Origin: a virus
Taxonomy: Duplodnaviria; Heunggongvirae; Uroviricota; Caudoviricetes
Virus record (IMG/VR): IMGVR_UViG_2660237930_000001
Strand: one strand, 5' to 3'
DNA length: 12,927 nucleotides
Positions 3,879 to 12,607 of the stretch are shown in pieces. A program made the translations under genes and the position numbers. The notes under the pieces are model-generated. The model did not search any database and had not been told where the DNA came from. It worked only from the letters and a program-made list of their open reading frames with translations. The stretch's first letter is position 1; each line of letters opens with the position of its first letter.

Positions 3879-4172
3879 ATGAAAAAAATGTTGTTTTCTG
3901 CCGCTCTGGCAATGCTTATTACAGGATGTGCTCAACAGACGTTTACTGTTGGAAACAAACCGACAGCAGTAACACCAAAGGAAACCATCACCCATCATTT
4001 CTTCGTTTCGGGAATTGGACAGGAGAAAACTGTGGATGCAGCCAAAATTTGTGGCGGCGCAGAAAATGTTGTTAAAACAGAAACCCAGCAAACATTCGTA
4101 AATGGATTGCTCGGTTTTATTACTTTAGGCATTTATACTCCGCTGGAAGCGCGTGTCTATTGCTCACAATAA
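3879..4172 (+). CDS. bor: Bor lipoprotein (serum-resistance lipoprotein), lambda-type
   Basis: The 3831-4172 track ORF contains MKKMLFSAALAMLITGCAQQTFTV...EARVYCSQ; the ATG at 3879 gives a 97-aa protein with a lipobox (LITGC) matching lambda Bor as recalled. Opposite strand to the lysis genes, as in lambda. Confidence 0.9.
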   Translation: MKKMLFSAALAMLITGCAQQTFTVGNKPTAVTPKETITHHFFVSGIGQEKTVDAAKICGGAENVVKTETQQTFVNGLLGFITLGIYTPLEARVYCSQ

Positions 4173-4820: not shown

Positions 4821-5252
4821 TTACCGCCAGCGTATGTCCAGCGCCGTAGAATGATCACATGCGCCTTTGATATCGCCCTGGTTTATTTTGCGAAGAAGCG
4901 TCGATGTTCTGAAATTGCCAGCGCCCACGTTGTAAACGAATGAGTAAAGAGCGCCGCGCGTTGTTTCCGGTATATCGACTGTGATGTACGGGTTAATTTG
5001 TCTGGCGACAGTGGCAAGGTCTTTATTCAGGAGGGCTTTGCATTCTGCTTCGGTATACGTTTTACCGAGCATGATGTCTTTTCCGGTGTGTCCGTGACAT
5101 ACAGTCCATACGCCAACGATATCTTTGTATGGTATGTAGCTGACACCTTCCAGGCCATCGTCACCACTCGGACCAGTGATGAGCACAGACGCTATGGCAA
5201 CAGCCCCACCACCAATAGCAGCAGCAATAGCCTTGCGTAATGATGGCGACAT
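4821..5252 (-). CDS. R: Phage-21-type SAR endolysin (T4-lysozyme family), apparently truncated by a +1 frameshift; the C-terminal about 30 aa continue in another frame to a stop at 4754-4756
   Basis: 143-aa [62 protein letters not shown]... has an N-terminal signal-anchor-release segment and lysozyme core. The frame shifted by one nucleotide across 4850-4853 reads ...[32 protein letters not shown], ending just upstream of the Rz start. Confidence 0.85.
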
Positions 5253-5700: not shown

Positions 5701-5744
5701 TTTGTGAGAATGCAGACGGGGCTACTGATTTTTTGTGAGAATGC
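5701..5744. repeat. Two perfect 13-bp direct repeats TTTGTGAGAATGC (5701-5713 and 5732-5744), 31 bp start-to-start
   Basis: Read directly from the sequence; the flanks are also similar (CTAAATGATA / CTACTGATTT upstream). Lies in the AT-rich intergenic region between S (-) and the porin gene (+). Confidence 0.6.
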
Positions 5745-6004
5745 CACCGAGTGTTCAAAACACCACCACAAATACATAAGAAAACTTCAACAAATAACCA
5801 AATAACCAATGAATAATTTCCGATGTTATTTTTAGTTTGTTTAAATTAAGCTAAAGAATTATAGAGCGCTTATAAATAAGTGCCATTAATATAAATTAGC
5901 TAATAGATTTATTTTCGTTCAAACAAGAGCCATGAATAGGATTAGATAGAAAAGGTTCAGATAAAAATAGAGATCTACTTCACAAATTAAATGAGAAACT
6001 AAAA

Positions 6005-6095: not shown

Positions 6096-7178
6096 ATGAA
6101 AAAATTAACAGTGGCAATTTCTGCTGTAGCTGCATCAGTACTGATGGCGATGTCTGCTCAGGCAGCTGAAATTTATAATAAAGACAGTAACAAGCTGGAT
6201 CTATACGGGAAAGTTAATGCCAAGCACTACTTTTCCTCTAATGATGCAGATGATGGTGATACTACTTATGCCCGTCTTGGCTTCAAAGGTGAAACCCAAA
6301 TCAACGATCAACTGACTGGTTTCGGTCAGTGGGAATATGAATTCAAAGGCAACCGTGCTGAATCTCAAGGTTCTTCCAAAGACAAAACCCGTCTTGCATT
6401 TGCAGGCCTGAAATTTGGTGATTACGGCTCAATCGATTACGGCCGTAACTACGGTGTAGCATACGACATCGGTGCGTGGACTGACGTCCTGCCAGAATTC
6501 GGTGGTGATACCTGGACCCAAACAGATGTGTTCATGACTGGTCGCACTACTGGTGTTGCAACTTATCGTAACAACGACTTCTTTGGTCTGGTCGATGGCC
6601 TGAACTTTGCTGCTCAGTATCAGGGTAAAAATGACCGCACTGACGTAACTGAAGCCAACGGTGATGGTTTCGGTTTCTCCACTACTTATGAGTATGAAGG
6701 ATTCGGCGTGGGTGCAACCTATGCTAAATCAGATCGCACTGACGGTCAGGTCGCCTATGGTAAGAGCAAATTCAATGCCTCCGGCAAAAATGCGGAAGTA
6801 TGGGCTGCAGGCCTGAAATATGATGCGAACAATATCTATCTGGCTACCACATATTCTGAAACTCAGAATATGACCGTTTTTGGTAATAACCATATTGCAA
6901 ACAAAGCACAAAACTTTGAAGCAGTAGCACAATATCAGTTTGACTTCGGTCTGCGACCATCTGTTGCTTACCTTCAGTCAAAAGGTAAAGACCTTGGTGT
7001 TCATGGTGACCGAGACTTAGTCAAGTATGTCGATGTCGGTGCTACTTACTACTTTAATAAAAACATGTCCACTTTTGTTGATTACAAAATCAACTTAATT
7101 GACGATAGTAAGTTTACCAAAACAGCTGGTATTGATACCGACGACATCGTCGCTGTAGGTCTGGTTTATCAGTTCTAA
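6096..7178 (+). CDS. nmpC: Outer-membrane general porin of the OmpC/OmpF family (NmpC / phage Lc-type), prophage moron between Q and the lysis genes
   Basis: 360-aa ORF with signal peptide [30 protein letters not shown]..., porin hallmarks and C-terminal ...VGLVYQF. GGG Shine-Dalgarno 6 nt upstream. Opposite strand to the late genes, as for nmpC in DLP12 and lc in PA-2. Confidence 0.9.
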
Positions 7179-7195
7179 TCTGACTTACGAAAAAG

Positions 7196-7229
7196 ATATG
7201 TTGCGGGAGGCTTTGCCTCCGCAACATAT
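7196..7229 (-). terminator. Strong hairpin with U-run on the minus strand; candidate late-operon terminator (tR'-like) about 140-170 nt downstream of Q
   Basis: ATATGTTGCGG(G)AGGC-TTT-GCCTCCGCAACATAT gives a stem of about 14 bp with one bulge. On the minus strand it is followed by CTTTTTCG; on the plus strand the downstream sequence is not U-rich. Confidence 0.4.
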
Positions 7230-7316
7230 AAGTGGAGCCCTCAAGCCACTTCCTTTAGAAGCACTACCTTGCTTCTTACTATATAAACCTTCTGTTATAT
7301 ATTACCCTTTATTTTG

Positions 7317-7340
7317 GGGGCGTTTCCACGCCCCATTTTT
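7317..7340 (+). terminator. Rho-independent terminator candidate on the plus strand (porin transcript)
   Basis: GGGGCGT-TTCC-ACGCCCC (7-bp GC-rich stem) followed by ATTTTT (7335-7340). Confidence 0.45.
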
Positions 7341-7366
7341 AATAACTTTTAGTAAACAATTGCATA

Positions 7367-7750
7367 TCAATTAGAATTATTAGCAACGATATCCATATCT
7401 AACCGGATATCTAATGCCATTAACATCCCTTCAATTATGCCCTCAGCCTTCTGTAACCTTTTCCCGATATAACCATCCGAGCAGCAATGCTTACTTGCCA
7501 GTGACATGAATGTCATACCACATACATAATAATCTACTAATAAATCGTGTAAATCGCTGTTGTTCTTTTTCAGACGGGCCATGCACCCGCAAATGATCAT
7601 CGCGTCATCGTCACAACATTGCGGGCGAGATTTTACTTTTGAAGGAATTAATCCCTTAAAACCGGCGGCAACGGACGACCAGGTCACATCTTCATGATTA
7701 TTAGCCGCCCACGCTCCCCAACGCTCAAGAACCATCTGAATATCACGCAT
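7367..7750 (-). CDS. quuD: Late-gene antiterminator Q (phage 82 / DLP12 QuuD type)
   Basis: The 132-aa track ORF contains [26 protein letters not shown]...[18 protein letters not shown]...; 127 aa from the ATG at 7750, which has a GGAG Shine-Dalgarno 7 nt upstream. The track start at 7765 is a TTG. Matches DLP12 QuuD as recalled. Confidence 0.85.
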
Positions 7751-7835
7751 CAACTTACTCCACAAAAATCAGACCAGAACGCCAATTACAAGCAAAAATC
7801 AACAAAACAGTATTAGTTGATTGTTATCTCTGACT

Positions 7836-7976
7836 TCATACTCCTGCTCCTGTCAGGGTTTTGGCGTAATTCTTCAGTATTCGGTAATCGGTCAAAACAG
7901 AACCAGGAAAACGATAGAAGCGCAGGCGCACCCAGCGGCGGCGAAGACGCTCTGCCATATAAGACTCAAACATCAT
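7836..7976 (-). CDS. ylcG: Small nin-region protein YlcG-like (46 aa)
   Basis: Manually translated: [46 protein letters not shown]. The start overlaps the rusA stop (ATGATG/TGA); position between rusA and Q matches DLP12 ylcG. Below the ORF-track size cutoff. Confidence 0.55.
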
Positions 7977-8335
7977 TCATCTCCCAGTTCGGTGATGGTC
8001 AGCTCCAGCTTCCCACCTTTGGTAACGGGCATCTTCACAACACGGTAATCAACGACCTGAATATCATCCAGCCAGAAACCTGCTTTGGTGAGTGCGTCAA
8101 AAGCGGCTTTTTGCAGATTATCCAGGTCACGGCGACGGCGATCCGGCATGTGGCACTCAATACGGATTTTCACTGGCATAGCCAAGCCGATATCCAGCAT
8201 TGCGTTTTTAATGATTCGGGCGACGTTATCGCAGTATGCCTGCCCCTCTGCGCTGACGTGCGTGCGCCCACGATTATGGCGGTAATAGCGATTATTGCTC
8301 GGAGGCCAAGGTAATGTGATGCTGTAGGTATTCAC
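7973..8335 (-). CDS. rusA: Holliday-junction resolvase RusA
   Basis: 120-aa [37 protein letters not shown]...[27 protein letters not shown]..., matching E. coli RusA as recalled, with the catalytic Asp-rich region. Confidence 0.9.
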
Positions 8336-8622
8336 GCCTCAATAACCCCCTCTTTCAACCAGATAACCTGTGTTCTCGCCATACCTTCCAGCGCGCATTC
8401 TTTTGCATATCCAGCGTCAACAAAATGCGTGCGACGGTCGATTTCGTCGTGGCAGGCAGAACATGCAATGGTGGCAATCAGGTCTGGCGGTTTGATACCG
8501 GTACCGCACAATCCAGCCAGCCGGATATGTGCCAGTACTGACGTTTCAGGATTGCCATTACATACGCCAGGGATTCTTACCTGGCATTCCCGACCACGCG
8601 CTGCTTTTCTCAAATCAGCCAT
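8332..8622 (-). CDS. ybcO: YbcO-like prophage protein (DUF1364; putative metal-dependent nuclease)
   Basis: The track ORF contains [42 protein letters not shown]...ACHDEIDRR...; ATG at 8622 with a GGAGG Shine-Dalgarno upstream; Cys/His-rich. Matches DLP12 YbcO as recalled. Confidence 0.8.
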
Positions 8623-8785
8623 GATTCCTCCTTGCTGCCAGTCGCAACCATTTTTTATCAACCAGGCTGGCGGTATACCCGAGCAGTGTTGGTATTTCGG
8701 ATGGCTTCAGCTCAGGTTTACGCTTACGACGATTTGGTACTTTGTAGATGTGTCCGTTCATGATACGAATAAGCGGTGTAGCCAT
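8615..8785 (-). CDS. ninE: NinE-like protein (56 aa)
   Basis: Manually translated: [56 protein letters not shown]. The start overlaps the ybcN stop (TAATG) and the stop overlaps the ybcO start; position and basic character fit NinE. Confidence 0.6.
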   Translation of the reverse strand: MATPLIRIMNGHIYKVPNRRKRKPELKPSEIPTLLGYTASLVDKKWLRLAARRNHG

Positions 8786-9240
8786 TACGCCTCCTGCTTG
8801 TCGCGCAGCAGCTGGAACTCGCAGCGCTGCGGAATAGTCAGGTGGCAGCCAATATTCATCGCCCAGGCTTCAACCTTACACAGGAAGACATACATCTCTC
8901 CGGTATCAAGATCGGAGGTATGGCGTAACGACTGGATAGTAGTGATTTCGCCGGTTACGACATCAACCAGGTCCTTGGTTTCATAACCGAGGTATGTGTG
9001 TTTGAGAGCATCTTTTACCCATGCTGCGGTAGCGAACGATTTCCCCCTGCTGATGAGGTATTCACTGATTTCGCTGTACCACATATGGCTGAGTGCATTC
9101 TGGGAAAGACTGCGTTTCTCACGCCACGGTTTAAGCACCATGCGAAAGCATTTTCCGTCCTCCAGATAAGGCTGGATCTGCTGGCCGAAAGCGGTGAAGT
9201 TGCCGCGATGCAATTTGATGCCATCTTGTGGGAGGTTCAC
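8785..9240 (-). CDS. ybcN: YbcN-like nin-region protein (DUF1367; reported DNA base-flipping protein)
   Basis: 151-aa [61 protein letters not shown]... matching DLP12 YbcN as recalled. GTG start at 9240 with a GGAGG Shine-Dalgarno (reverse complement of 9247-9251). Confidence 0.85.
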
Positions 9241-9338
9241 GATTCACCTCCGCAGAGGCCAAACGCTGGATGCAAAAAATCGCAGGTGCATTTCTGCATC
9301 TGTGAATGGAGAAGATAGGTTGGATTGTATGTGCGCAT
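9237..9338 (-). CDS. ylcH: Small ORF (33 aa), possibly YlcH-like, translationally coupled to ybcN
   Basis: Manually translated: [38 protein letters not shown] Shine-Dalgarno 6 nt upstream of the ATG at 9338; its stop overlaps the ybcN GTG (GTGA). Same length and position as DLP12 ylcH, but I cannot verify the sequence identity. Confidence 0.4.
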
Positions 9339-9723
9339 AAACGTCCCCGTTTAGCGCAGAAGTCACAGGAGTTGTTCAGGCTCCGGTGATACAATTATGG
9401 CGAATTGATTATTCATAATCAAACAAGATAAGGTCTCAAACTTCATGCAAGCCAAGATTTATTTCTGACAGAATTATACAAAGAAGCTATTGGTCAGAAT
9501 CTACTCGGACTGTAAAACATACGCATAACCTTAAGCTCTCACTTTAAGCATTGTTGAAATAATAGCCGTCAAGTACAACCTTAACCACGACTGGGATATT
9601 TCCCTAGCTACCACGAGTTGTACTGCTATTAAACTGCCGTTAAATTCAGTAAGAGAATTTCATCCGATAAGTCAAGGCATGTAAAACATAAAAATTAACA
9701 AGATATTATCATCTGCAACACTA

Positions 9724-10731
9724 TTGTATGGTATGTCAATGGCCATGTCGGTCGGGAGTTGTGCAACACCTGTCCAGACTAATTTTCCTGGTTACACCCC
9801 GGGTGCAGATATCATTAGTGTTTCACCCACCAGAAACCAGGTCGATCTCATTGGTGATGTTGTTTATTCCCAGATAAAAGGAACTCGTTCTGTCAGACAG
9901 CTTCACATGTCAGTTCTTGTCCCGCGAACAAATGATTTAAAACCAGCCATTATTTATTATCCCGGCGGCGGATTCATGTCTTCTGAACATGACAAATTTA
10001 TTGAAATGAGAATGGCTCTGGCTGAAGCTGGTTTTGTTGTGGCCGCTGTAGAATACAGAACAATTCCTGATACATTTCCAGCACCAGTTGAGGATGGGAA
10101 AGCTGCAATACGTTACTTGAGAGAACATGCCAGCGATTATGGGATTGATCCTCAAAGAATCGGAGTTCTGGGTGACTCTGCCGGTGGATGGCTTGCCCAG
10201 ATGATGGGAACTACAAATGGTGACAAAACCTTTAATAAAGGTGACTTTCTTCAGCAATCAGCAGATGTTCAGGCAGTTGCCACACTTTATGGGATTTCTG
10301 ACTTGTTGAATATTGGCGAGGGGTTCCCTGAATCAGTGCAGGAGGTTCATCGATCTCCTGCCGTAACCGAAGCCTTAATGATCAATGGCCCTGCATTCAG
10401 AAGTTTTGCGGGAGCCCCCATAACAGCGTCAAAAGAAAAAGCGCTAAACGCCAGTCCAATCGGACATATGAAAGGAGTAAAACCCCCATTTCTTATTATG
10501 CATGGTAGCAAAGACACTCTGGTTTCACCTGAGCAAAGCGCCAAACTATTCAGGATGTTGAAGAAGAACGGCGATAACGCTGAGTACGTTCTGGTAGAAG
10601 GGGCTGAGCATGGCGATAATACATGGTATCAGCCAATTATTATAAACAGAGTTGTTGAGTGGTTTACTAAAAACCTGGGAACCCCCATAAAAACCGCTAC
10701 CCAACAACAAAAAACAAACGCTGACCTGTAA
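9724..10731 (+). CDS. Alpha/beta-hydrolase fold esterase/lipase-like serine hydrolase (cargo gene); probable lipoprotein if translation starts further upstream (in-frame to 9688)
   Basis: 335-aa ORF with oxyanion-hole-like YYPGGGF, nucleophile elbow GDSAGG (G-x-S-x-G), and C-terminal IMHGSKDTLV and EGAEHGD consistent with a catalytic Asp and His. Visibly more AT-rich than the flanking phage genes (by eye, not computed). The 9724 start is a TTG; in-frame ATGs at 9733, 9739 and 9745. Confidence 0.8.
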   Translation: MYGMSMAMSVGSCATPVQTNFPGYTPGADIISVSPTRNQVDLIGDVVYSQIKGTRSVRQLHMSVLVPRTNDLKPAIIYYPGGGFMSSEHDKFIEMRMALAEAGFVVAAVEYRTIPDTFPAPVEDGKAAIRYLREHASDYGIDPQRIGVLGDSAGGWLAQMMGTTNGDKTFNKGDFLQQSADVQAVATLYGISDLLNIGEGFPESVQEVHRSPAVTEALMINGPAFRSFAGAPITASKEKALNASPIGHMKGVKPPFLIMHGSKDTLVSPEQSAKLFRMLKKNGDNAEYVLVEGAEHGDNTWYQPIIINRVVEWFTKNLGTPIKTATQQQKTNADL

Positions 10732-10734
10732 AAA

Positions 10735-10765
10735 GCAGCCCGCACTTATGCGGGCTAACCTATTT
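10735..10765 (+). terminator. Rho-independent terminator candidate after the hydrolase gene
   Basis: AGCCCGCA-CTTA-TGCGGGCT (8-bp stem) beginning about 5 nt after the stop, followed by a moderately T-rich CTATTTC. Confidence 0.5.
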
Positions 10766-10768
10766 CAC

Positions 10769-10795
10769 TCGATTCAAAAGAAATTATTTTTAATG
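10769..10795. repeat. Left copy of an imperfect direct repeat of about 27 bp (perfect 15-bp core AAATTATTTTTAATG at 10781-10795) flanking the recombinase gene
   Basis: TCGATTCAAAAGAAATTATTTTTAATG here versus TCGTTTAAAAACAAATTATTTTTAATG at 12842-12868, same orientation. Confidence 0.6.
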
Positions 10796-11080
10796 GGGGC
10801 GTGACCAGCCTCTCGGTGCTCAGATACTTAATGAAGTGGAGTGGCATTCAGGCAAGAGGTTAACATCACCTGTTCGCCATAACCAAGCACGTGCACAAAG
10901 TTTGTTATCAGTGAATTGTTTTGTGATTGGGTATTGTTGAGCTACTAGAGCAAGAATGCCAACATCCAGTGGCAGTGCCTATAGTAAAACTATAGCTCAG
11001 GGCGCTTCGTTCAAGATAGTTAATATCATATTAGTCACTTTACTTTCATACCATAGCACGGTTGAAAAAGTGATTATTAC

Positions 11081-12607
11081 TCAAAAATAAATCTCACCAT
11101 CAACCATATATTTAAGAGTACTTATCGCCTGCTGGGCGGATATTACTTTCATTAAAGGATAGTGTTTAAAAACAATGCCATTCATAAAATAGATATCACA
11201 GGTTTTATTATCTGTATTAATTATAATTTTTTCGAATATTTTATAGGCAAGTGTACGACATAGCTCTCGCCCATTTTTACTGGTTAAATCAATAGCATGA
11301 AAATCACCAAGTGAACTCACCCCTTTACTCTTCAAAGTTTTTAATGATACCGAAGCCCTTCGTAATTCCTTATCTAATAGTCTTATTTTCTCTGCTATAG
11401 CGGTAACTTCAGGCGCGACAGACAATGCAACGATTAAATTATTAATTTTCATCTGAAGCTCAATAATTTTTAACTCTAAAGTTTCATTAGCATCTTTCTT
11501 GTTTTCAACTGGTTGAATTTTGCTACAATTAAAAAGCAATTCATTAATGATATTATAATCAACCAAATCTCTTTTTATTGATGGTCTGTCACATCGATGT
11601 AATCTTCTCATCGGACAAACATAATAGCCATGCAAACTTCCAGATACCGCATGAACAATCATGGTATTACCACAAGCCTCACACTTCATAACTGTTCGAA
11701 GTAGATTTATTAGCATAGGATTCTTGCTACTATTGCTAATACCAAAAGGTGCCAACCGAATTTCCTGTACAGCGTAAAACAAATCATCTGATATGACTCT
11801 GGGATAATAGCCAGCGATTTCACTTATCCCTTTCCCTCTTGCACGATATGAAGGTACGCATATACCTATCAGAGCTTTATTCGCTAATAATTTTTCAATT
11901 ACAGAAGGTCCCCATGCACTTTCTTTTCCTGAGAAATTCTTTACAGCATGATCATTTAAATACTTGGCTATTGCATTCAATGAGCGCCTTTCCATCCTGA
12001 GTTTAAAAATTAGCTCAATAGTTTTCACCCTGTCGGGGTCTGGAACAAAAGCCGTTCTTTTGTCATCCAATGAGAGCCATCTCGGACAAGAAGCCGTCAT
12101 AATCGTGCCTGACTCCAGTGCATCCTGCCGTTTTTTCTTCCATGATAATTTAACCCGACTTGACTTTATCTCGCTTTCTTCATTTGCCCTTTGTGCTATA
12201 AGTATGGCTTTTATTAATGAATATGGCTCATTCAATGAGTCAATATTATAGACTGTATTATCGCAAAGAGTTATAACATCAATACCGTGATTCAAAATCA
12301 ATTTCAGACGCTCAATCGCTTCACCGACTTTTTCTCTTGAAAGTCTGTCCAGACTTTCAACTAACAATGTAGTCCCTGGCAATATATAACCATGTTCTAT
12401 AGCATCTAAAAATTCCGAAAAAGCTCCTGATTGTGCATGCTTTCCATTGAATGCGCTTAACCCCAAATCTTCATACGTTACGGTATCAAGGTAATAATCA
12501 CTATTTACCTTTAGCCATTCAGTAATAAGCCTTCTCTGGCGGTTTAATGAATCACCAGACATCTGACCTGGTGATGAAAATCGCATATATGCTATGGCTT
12601 TTTTCAT
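11081..12607 (-). CDS. ybcK: Large serine recombinase (resolvase/invertase-type N-terminal catalytic domain, recombinase domain, Cys-rich zinc-ribbon region)
   Basis: 508-aa ORF. N-terminus AIAYMRFSSPGQMSGDSLNRQ is typical of the serine-recombinase catalytic domain (nucleophilic Ser in RFSS); Cys cluster C-x2-C ... C-x5-C in the middle. AGGTG Shine-Dalgarno 5 nt upstream. Very AT-rich. Size and position resemble DLP12 YbcK, but the symbol is assigned from memory. Confidence 0.85.
   Translation of the reverse strand: MKKAIAYMRFSSPGQMSGDSLNRQRRLITEWLKVNSDYYLDTVTYEDLGLSAFNGKHAQSGAFSEFLDAIEHGYILPGTTLLVESLDRLSREKVGEAIERLKLILNHGIDVITLCDNTVYNIDSLNEPYSLIKAILIAQRANEESEIKSSRVKLSWKKKRQDALESGTIMTASCPRWLSLDDKRTAFVPDPDRVKTIELIFKLRMERRSLNAIAKYLNDHAVKNFSGKESAWGPSVIEKLLANKALIGICVPSYRARGKGISEIAGYYPRVISDDLFYAVQEIRLAPFGISNSSKNPMLINLLRTVMKCEACGNTMIVHAVSGSLHGYYVCPMRRLHRCDRPSIKRDLVDYNIINELLFNCSKIQPVENKKDANETLELKIIELQMKINNLIVALSVAPEVTAIAEKIRLLDKELRRASVSLKTLKSKGVSSLGDFHAIDLTSKNGRELCRTLAYKIFEKIIINTDNKTCDIYFMNGIVFKHYPLMKVISAQQAISTLKYMVDGEIYF

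Follow-up and report, generated by a model that had tools for sequence, protein, structure and literature searches.

Two kinds of described system are close to the gene considered here: exported esterases, among them BD-FAE, a feruloyl and acetyl-xylan esterase with a published Ser128-Asp237-His269 triad (PMC8165983), and the accessory genes (morons) of lambdoid prophages. The window, i.e. the whole stretch of 12,927 nucleotides (nt) that was analysed (IMG/VR record IMGVR_UViG_2660237930_000001, Caudoviricetes), belongs to a DLP12-like lambdoid prophage of Escherichia coli and has 99.9% identity to strain UPEC132. On its plus strand it has a full-length frame of 347 codons and a stop (9688..10731, 1,044 nt) for an alpha/beta-hydrolase of the BD-FAE family. 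We find it reasonably probable that the gene encodes an exported serine esterase of the BD-FAE branch, likely with hydroxycinnamoyl substrates, which was captured as cargo by a phage and whose start codon has been lost in the window. Hundreds of genomes, as well as phage records, already list the gene under the label 'alpha/beta hydrolase' or 'esterase', and its family is well known, but a literature search found no paper on this phage esterase gene and none joining ybcK, prophage and esterase. Added here are a testable substrate hypothesis drawn from linkage to phenolic acid decarboxylase genes, the loss of the start codon in the window, a corrected picture of the locus with regard to the replaced genes and the direction of the terminator, and a map of the cargo between the replication and nin genes.

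A mechanical list of open reading frames (ORFs) gives the gene as 335 amino acids from a TTG start (9724..10731, plus strand), and the Prokaryotic Genome Annotation Pipeline (PGAP) has ATG 9739 as an alternative start. The frame is open upstream back to 9685, and 9688-10731 is exactly the coding sequence (CDS) annotated in phage 4A7 and in strain LF82. The original prediction recognised a serine esterase in the 335-residue ORF from the motifs GGGF, GDSAGG, HG..D and E.HG. All four are present, in full-length numbering at residues 93-96 (GGGF), 162-167 (GDSAGG), 272 (HGSKD) and 306 (AEHGD), and profile and structure searches agree with a hydrolase that has a Ser-Asp-His triad. The Pfam match to BD-FAE (PF20434) has an E-value of 2.9e-44 (151.6 bits against a cut-off of 26.8, profile positions 7-214 of 215), and there are further matches to Abhydrolase_3 (8e-23), Peptidase_S9 (4e-18) and PHROG 3341 'esterase' (1.3e-129). 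G93-G-G-F96, G162-D163-S164-x-G166-G167, D276 and H308 are invariant in 50 aligned homologues. They correspond to a GGGF oxyanion-hole motif (9964..9975), a GDSAGG nucleophile elbow (10171..10188, with the Ser164 codon at 10177-10179), the catalytic acid Asp276 (10513..10515) and the catalytic His308 (10609..10611), all on the plus strand, and a phmmer alignment pairs Ser164, Asp276 and His308 with Ser128, Asp237 and His269 of BD-FAE.

An AlphaFold2 model based on the alignment of 50 homologues (predicted local distance difference test 80.7, predicted template-modelling score 0.79) places Ser164 between strand 153-163 and helix 165-175, and Asp276 and His308 in loops past strands 268-273 and 298-303, which is the canonical alpha/beta-hydrolase arrangement. 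The best Foldseek match is 6nkf (E 1.5e-26, template-modelling score 0.83 when normalised by target length), 6xyc is matched with E 3.4e-19, and the probability is 1.00 for 6nkf, for 6xyc and 6tkx (both BD-FAE) and for 6mly (GH43-CE). As judged from alignment and model, the predicted protein is a bona fide BD-FAE family alpha/beta-hydrolase with a Ser-Asp-His triad. Several narrower assignments were rejected. The NCBIfam equivalogs LipQ, LipP1, chloramphenicol hydrolase, Aes, PaeX, AxeA1 and tannases all score far below their cut-offs. An equivalence between BD-FAE Glu197, proposed to bind ferulate, and the invariant Glu228 was dropped because Glu197 falls at another position, with low confidence, in the single-sequence alignment, and in an unaligned stretch of the profile alignment.

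The extension upstream of the 335-residue ORF was predicted to supply a textbook lipoprotein signal peptide, which stands for the ancestral frame and falls for the copy in the window. The extension reads (I)KINKILSSATLLYGMSMAMSVGSC-ATP, with MKINK...SVGSC as the ancestral form. Residues 1-25 (9688..9762, plus strand) make up a putative ancestral lipoprotein signal peptide with the lipobox V-G-S-C, and MKINKILSSATLLYGMSMAMSVGSC with Cys25 (codon 9760-9762, followed by Ala) satisfies the PROSITE PS51257-type lipobox rule when Met is taken as position 1. From this pattern, the protein of the ATG alleles is predicted to be lipidated and located in the envelope. In the window, however, the initiation codon (9688..9690, plus strand) is ATA, a single G-to-A difference in the alignment with phage 4A7. 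The codon is ATG in 4A7, LF82, Rb-50 and nearly all other alleles. An in-frame TAA (9682-9684) precedes the ATA, and the signal peptide has no canonical start here. A Shine-Dalgarno-like AAGG (9675..9678, plus strand) can be read 9 nt 5' of codon 9688. Just past it lies an ATG-TAA 'start-stop' mini-ORF (9679-9684), in frame and 3 nt 5' of the esterase start, which is kept in phage 4A7; it could modulate initiation or be a product of chance.

The ATA allele is rare: the exact 61-mer around the codon was found in four of 682 matching E. coli records, whereas sampled matching records have one or two mismatches to it and an annotated CDS that spans the site. Initiation at AUA in E. coli is about 1-2% of that at AUG, with 0.02-3% in other constructs (bioRxiv 10.1101/063800), and the ATA allele should yield no more than a few percent of the normal amount of the exported form. 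The in-frame starts further downstream (TTG 9724 and ATG 9733, 9739 and 9745) have no recognisable Shine-Dalgarno sequence before them on inspection and would cost the signal its charged n-region and most of its hydrophobic core. With this start codon, the rarity of the allele, the low initiation at AUA and downstream starts of this kind, the window copy most likely behaves as a hypomorph or null with regard to the exported enzyme.

It is quite unlikely that the window allele is still functional, whether as a lipoprotein initiated at ATA 9688 or ATT 9694 or as a cytoplasmic esterase from ATG 9733, 9739 or 9745. Low-level initiation does occur at both AUA and AUU (bioRxiv 10.1101/063800), the Shine-Dalgarno-like AAGG is kept, the remaining ORF is intact with five conservative substitutions relative to the LF82 allele, and PGAP calls a shortened 330-amino acid CDS from ATG 9739 in UPEC132, which is 100% identical to the window in the esterase region. 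Against this, the allele is as rare and AUA as inefficient as stated above, no export would be expected from the downstream ATGs since the core of the signal is lost, and nearly all homologues with a readable N-terminus carry a signal peptide.

The gene was predicted to be AT-rich cargo, a moron of a DLP12-like prophage in the slot that holds ybcL and ybcM in DLP12 itself, and comparison with K-12 bears this out. Homology to K-12 DLP12 in blastn stops at window position 9423 and restarts at 11042 (positions 8284 and 6470 of the K-12 locus, L003). The cassette in between (9424..11041, 1,618 bp) consists of the esterase gene with non-coding flanks and stands in place of 1,813 bp with ybcL and ybcM in K-12, between ylcH/ybcN and the ybcK recombinase gene. 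The GC content of the esterase gene is 44.2% compared with 51-54% for ybcN, rusA and the terminase gene, though the whole island is AT-rich and ybcK, with 35.9%, is more so than the esterase gene. The cassette is thus present or absent in otherwise collinear phages, as the swap with ybcL-ybcM shows. It is also carried by functional phages: eight phage genome records have the gene (Bievrevirus 4A7 in two records, 4C10, Perceval, D2, 1W, 3W and PhiR47_2), and Perceval, the prophage of LF82, makes virions (PMC9928086). The further claim that the usual replication genes had been replaced is contradicted by near-identical UPEC132, where O and P are present past ybcK and emrE. They are kept in the same place in 4A7, and past emrE alone in Rb-50.

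The esterase gene was found in 681 of 5,426 complete E. coli genomes (12.6%), always with the same nin-side junction. It could therefore be rejected as an E. coli core gene, which would have spoken against the cargo interpretation. The junction of the cassette with the ylcH/ybcN side (9343-9503) is common to 682 genomes, which argues for one insertion site and probably one capture of the cassette. On the other side, the junction between ybcK and the esterase gene occurs in 490 genomes; ybcK itself is found in 1,424 and the K-12-type ybcK/ybcL junction in 675. No att-like direct or inverted repeats were seen at the cassette boundaries, where only short matches at chance level occur.

The esterase gene is present in 45 IMG/VR loci. 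Among 44 of them, the layout of the window is seen in 14, the esterase gene lies beside emrE with ybcK deleted in 4, and sequences of the ybcK/emrE side are absent from 26, so that Rb-50 and 30 of these 44 loci have the esterase gene without ybcK. The Rb-50 locus (L091, 4089-5523) and L098-L101 have lost ybcK together with most of the spacer, which leaves 58 bp between the esterase gene and emrE and shows that the cassette can be kept without the recombinase. A cassette mobilised by ybcK was rejected because the esterase gene is also found without it. One locus of the 26 that lack the ybcK/emrE side was examined (L118). A 1,302-amino acid inverse-autotransporter (intimin/invasin-like) adhesin is encoded there between the replication gene P and the esterase gene (7081-10989, minus strand), with the domains IAT_beta (5e-101), Big_1 and Invasin_D3. 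Four cargo variants are thus found between the replication and nin genes: ybcK with ybcL/M, ybcK with the esterase gene, emrE with the esterase gene and no ybcK, and the inverse-autotransporter adhesin gene with the esterase gene. Because related prophages differ in layout on the ybcK/emrE side, the stretch between the replication and nin genes is a variable cargo region, in line with the hotspot proposed originally.

Relatives of the esterase were collected at E <= 1e-10 (about 2,600 homologues), and gene neighbourhoods were read from 83 loci. The hosts are plant-associated (Pantoea, Dickeya, Pectobacterium, Kosakonia, Rhizobium, and leaf isolates of Sphingomonas and Methylobacterium) or gut bacteria (Sutterella, Bacteroides, Prevotella, Akkermansia, Helicobacter, Campylobacter and Succinivibrionaceae). 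Across phyla the proteins share 50-73% identity, a sign of extensive horizontal transfer. The E. coli phage copies share 55-63% identity with genes of Akkermansia, Helicobacter, Campylobacter, Bacteroides, Phocaeicola and Sutterella (L045, L046, L048, L052, L054 and others), and this spread across phyla is unusually wide and recent-looking for an esterase. Nearly all homologues with a readable N-terminus have ordinary signal peptides, of the signal-peptidase-I type in the distant ones, and the lipobox is limited to the phage clade and its closest relatives.

The neighbours of these relatives give a clue to the substrate. The four nearest relatives outside phages are P0002 (78-80% identity, according to the alignment used), P0003 (80%), P0004 (75%) and P0005 (74%). 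The genes of P0002, P0004 and P0005 are located immediately 3' of a phenolic acid decarboxylase gene (PF05870), with a divergent LysR gene in addition at P0004 and P0005. The annotated N-terminal extension of P0003 (L140, 5007-5045) shows weak similarity to the C-terminal end of phenolic acid decarboxylase (62% identity over 13 amino acids, E 0.06-0.16) and may be the remnant of a former decarboxylase-esterase unit. The P0003 locus also adjoins a gene for a SPATE (serine protease autotransporter of Enterobacteriaceae) and a PerC-like gene. Over all 83 loci the decarboxylase is the commonest real neighbour family (12 loci), followed by LysR-type regulators (11 loci). The loci in which it abuts the esterase gene belong to Gamma- and Alphaproteobacteria and Bacteroidota, and include Serratia, Mangrovibacter, Symbiopectobacterium, Azospirillum, Aeromonas, Pedobacter and a metagenome-assembled genome of Flavobacteriales.

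Names given to homologues point in the same direction. FaeD and FaeT of Dickeya are listed as CE10 feruloyl esterases (PMC10319131; bioRxiv 10.1101/568105). Dickeya aquatica has two paralogues 3 kb apart (L009, 6001-7032 and 10089-11075) with about 62-66% (P0079) and 46% identity to the phage esterase; both have signal peptides, both are named 'Ferulate esterase' by the source and one has a divergent LysR gene. Hassan and Hugouvieux-Cotte-Pattat reportedly demonstrated the feruloyl esterase activity of FaeD and FaeT by experiment in 2011, with proteins of D. dadantii, a result that is linked to the D. aquatica paralogues by source name. FaeT is said in that work to be cytoplasmic, whereas both D. 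aquatica paralogues carry signal peptides. Given the decarboxylase linkage, the source names in Dickeya and the activity of BD-FAE, a hydrolase of hydroxycinnamoyl esters, possibly also of acetyl esters, would be the best-supported reading of the substrate.

Variation within E. coli indicates how the gene is maintained. Full reading of 49 alleles gave 44 intact ones (ATG, Cys25, Ser-Asp-His and no stops), and the remainder are three with ATA, one with a nonsense mutation at codon 146 and one that is truncated; Cys25 is kept in all 49. The median pairwise dN/dS among 24 distinct E. coli alleles is 0.17 (range 0.05-0.33). Compared with the LF82/4A7 allele, the window has 11 synonymous and 5 non-synonymous (conservative) changes in addition to the start codon. 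This dN/dS (about 0.17), with 44 of 49 alleles still intact at a nucleotide divergence of up to 3%, suggests selection on function. Read from these alleles, the gene appears to be under selection in the lineage as a whole, and the ATA allele to be a recent and rare loss.

The same data bear on the possibility that the product is a broad short-chain carboxylesterase or lipase without a dedicated substrate, a near-neutral passenger of a successful phage lineage. Null alleles do occur (ATA, the nonsense mutation and one truncation), the best match in structure and sequence is 6nkf, a 'lipase' from a rumen metagenome, the NCBIfam matches are scattered over many esterase types and all far under their cut-offs, and neighbourhoods are mostly unconserved. 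A passenger would nevertheless hardly be expected to show this dN/dS and this share of intact alleles, nor to stay while its neighbours on the ybcK side change, and the decarboxylase linkage recurs in distant phyla. We therefore regard a passenger esterase of this kind as unlikely.

Transcription of the gene opposite to the phage operons, as first proposed, is consistent with the gene order: the esterase gene is on the plus strand, and the nin, Q, lysis and terminase genes are on the minus strand. A terminator of its own is not supported. The 8-bp GC-rich hairpin 5 nt past the stop codon (10737-10756, dG -14.8 kcal/mol, z -3.4), detected by a terminator scan and folding of both strands, has its T-run on the minus strand, with the tail GCUUUUU compared with AACCUAUUUC on the plus strand. 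It scores as a canonical intrinsic terminator of the minus strand and is at best weak for the plus-strand esterase gene. It would suit transcription that leaves ybcK toward the nin genes, and, along phage early transcription, it comes after ybcK and before the nin genes. Possibly the cassette brought it in as a nin-region terminator of the lambda tR type. An Rfam scan of 9200-11150 gave no matches at E <= 0.1.

Expression has been recorded for the LF82 gene, an ATG allele in another strain than that of the window. This gene is PERCE_52 (LF82_159, 'alpha/beta hydrolase', 1,044 nt) in S1 Table of PMC9928086. Its values of log2(fpkm+5), where fpkm stands for fragments per kilobase per million, are 4.38 and 4.13 in lysogeny broth (LB), 6.92 and 7.19 in B1, 5.07 and 5.09 in B6, 6.98 and 7.30 in MB1 and 6.12 and 6.27 in MB6 (PMC9928086). 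MB6 denotes bacteria in THP-1 macrophages at 6 h (PMC9928086), and B1 and B6 are presumably bacteria alone in infection medium. In LB the neighbouring NinB and NinE stay close to or at the floor of 2.32, and their maximum is about 5.4 (PMC9928086). In normalised counts from the LF82 RNA-seq table, PERCE_52 has 19 compared with the floor of 5.0 for its nin neighbours, and it is up about 6-fold in other conditions. These levels, compared with the lytic neighbours, suggest that the gene with the ATG start may be transcribed independently and respond to conditions.

The original prediction also speculated about modification of envelope glycans and superinfection exclusion. According to this explanation a surface esterase would alter the envelope of the lysogen by de-O-acetylating O-antigen, lipopolysaccharide, peptidoglycan or capsule, and thereby block superinfection or help to evade immunity. 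The gene is borne by a prophage and predicted to encode an envelope-anchored protein, the LF82 transcript is up in B1 and inside macrophages, nearby morons of the window or UPEC132 are envelope proteins (Bor/Iss, the NmpC-like porin and EmrE), and members of the BD-FAE family also deacetylate polysaccharides (PMC8165983). However, neither the esterase nor ybcK matched a defence model in PADLOC (E <= 0.01), and the homologues are overwhelmingly chromosomal, non-phage genes for exported esterases in many phyla, with one related viral contig found outside E. coli. The nearest relatives are tied to phenolic acid decarboxylase and not to envelope biosynthesis. Moreover, the known serotype converters of phages are acetyl- or glucosyl-transferases, and the known phage esterases that act on glycans have other folds (SGNH). 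This makes a role in modifying the envelope very doubtful.

The history and action of the esterase that we favour would be as follows. The esterase would descend from periplasmic or secreted esterases encoded on the chromosomes of plant-associated and gut bacteria; the genes of the nearest relatives lie in a unit with those for a LysR regulator and phenolic acid decarboxylase. The enzyme would be a serine carboxylesterase that uses Ser164 in the GDSAGG elbow, Asp276, His308 and the GGGF oxyanion hole, and its most likely chemistry would be the cleavage, outside the cytoplasm, of feruloyl or p-coumaroyl (maybe acetyl) esters of plant-derived sugars or phenolics. A 1.6-kb cassette with the esterase gene alone would have entered the nin region of DLP12-like (Bievrevirus) lambdoid phages in a single capture. 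In the phage clade, a lipoprotein signal (Cys25, Ala at +2) would tether the protein to the envelope, and the gene would be held by purifying selection and transcribed in the lysogen apart from the silent nin neighbours. The copy in the window, with its ATA start, would give little or no exported enzyme.

Several observations weigh against this account. The case for lipidation is a pattern match. Gly at position -2 of a lipobox is unusual, and a one-base change has replaced the lipobox Cys by Tyr in P0004 and in P0001, which represents an E. coli cluster at 90% identity. As for the window copy, ATA, ATT 9694 or a downstream ATG could yet yield some protein. The promoter scan found no plus-strand sigma-70-like promoter upstream of the esterase gene, and its overall count was not above that in shuffled sequence. 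The decarboxylase is adjacent in just 12 of the 83 loci, and a tblastn search found neither a phenolic acid decarboxylase nor a remnant of one in the window. The specificity of BD-FAE/CE10-like esterases is notoriously broad, and the closest solved structure was deposited as a 'lipase'. E. coli K-12 has, to our knowledge, no such decarboxylase and no ferulate catabolism, and the gain from a release of ferulate is uncertain. Finally, PERCE_52 was not scored as a moron in LB, where it is below the cut-off of 5x the median (PMC9928086).

The minus strand of the window carries the terminase gene, nohD, Rz, the lysozyme and holin genes, quuD, rusA, ybcO, ninE, ybcN, a ylcH-like ORF and ybcK; the large terminase gene is found at 766-2691, quuD at 7367-7765 and ybcN at 8785-9240. 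The constant neighbour of the cassette on the phage side is the ylcH-like small ORF (9237..9338, minus strand; PGAP annotation of UPEC132, converted by an offset valid around the esterase gene). On the other side ybcK (11081..12607, minus strand) encodes a large serine recombinase with the Pfam domains Resolvase, Recombinase and Zn_ribbon_recom, a neighbour of the esterase and not an obligatory partner. Besides the esterase gene, the plus strand has two further morons, both intact here: a gene for the Bor/Iss lipoprotein (3879-4172) and one for an NmpC/OmpC-like porin (6096-7178, Porin_1 1.9e-151), which is disrupted by IS5 in K-12. Two differences from UPEC132 were noted elsewhere. A 1-bp indel at 4850-4851 (AA compared with C in UPEC132), inside the minus-strand ORF 4821-5252, cuts the rrrD lysozyme ORF to 143 amino acids, whereas RrrD has 165 in UPEC132 and K-12; the endolysin of this prophage may be frameshifted, or the indel may be a sequencing error. 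Two segments of 31 bp (5701-5731) and 8 bp (5791-5798) in the AT-rich intergenic stretch from the holin gene to the porin gene are missing from UPEC132.

If the esterase does act on feruloyl or acetyl esters, it would be a metabolic auxiliary gene of coliphages found in about one eighth of complete E. coli genomes, LF82 included. One can go further and propose that temperate phages spread a lipid-anchored feruloyl/acetyl esterase among gut and extra-intestinal E. coli (adherent-invasive LF82 and uropathogenic strains) as a diet-linked trait or, alternatively, as a trait in the interaction with the host that is induced under the conditions of the macrophage infection experiment or inside macrophages, but at present this is a long shot. 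The diet-linked trait would consist of hydroxycinnamates or sugars freed from plant fibre or phenolic esters, and alleles with a lost start codon or a nonsense mutation would mark lineages that are losing it. A feruloyl or acetyl esterase would also be a diet-related addition to the morons of prophages, which are dominated by toxins, serum resistance, porins and defence.

Comparison with described esterases shows what is shared and what is particular to the phage protein. BD-FAE has the same Pfam family, alpha/beta fold and triad positions, and is likewise an exported enzyme of gut and plant-biomass settings. However, identity is just about 24-25%, the nucleophile motif is GFSSGG in BD-FAE and GDSAGG in the phage esterase, and the latter is encoded outside any polysaccharide utilisation locus, as a proteobacterial lipoprotein version on a temperate phage. 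The closest solved structure is Lip_vut4 (6NKF), an esterase/lipase from a goat rumen metagenome with 32% identity (phmmer 1e-37, profile 4e-49), which shares the catalytic motifs including the SP..E segment after the cap but has neither a lipoprotein signal nor a phage context; a literature search found no paper on its substrates. The 'Ferulate esterase' proteins of D. aquatica are homologous over the full length and have the same motifs and signal peptides, whereas their genes are chromosomal, the signals are of the signal-peptidase-I type and one gene is paired with LysR. Similarity is also seen to the hormone-sensitive lipase (HSL) family (family IV, Abhydrolase_3, e.g. E. coli Aes), with a nucleophile motif of the GDSAG type, a GGG oxyanion motif and the Abhydrolase_3 match of 8e-23. 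The oxyanion motif of that family is HGGG, whereas the phage esterase has PGGGF and a C-terminal half of the Peptidase_S9/dienelactone hydrolase type (HGxxD...xxHG). Canonical membership of the HSL family was rejected because of the PGGGF motif and NCBIfam HSL models that reach 47-79 bits against cut-offs of 350-430.

Among lambdoid morons, the esterase gene can be compared with Bor/Iss, NmpC, EmrE, YbcL/YbcM and the sitABCD genes of Perceval. Like these it is an accessory gene between phage modules, with atypical base composition, often on the opposite strand and, as seen for LF82, expressed in the lysogen. It differs in that its expression in LB is under the published moron cut-off and that no plus-strand promoter or good plus-strand terminator was identified for it, and also in kind: the other morons encode structural or transport proteins of the envelope, whereas this one encodes a predicted carbohydrate- or phenolic-ester enzyme.

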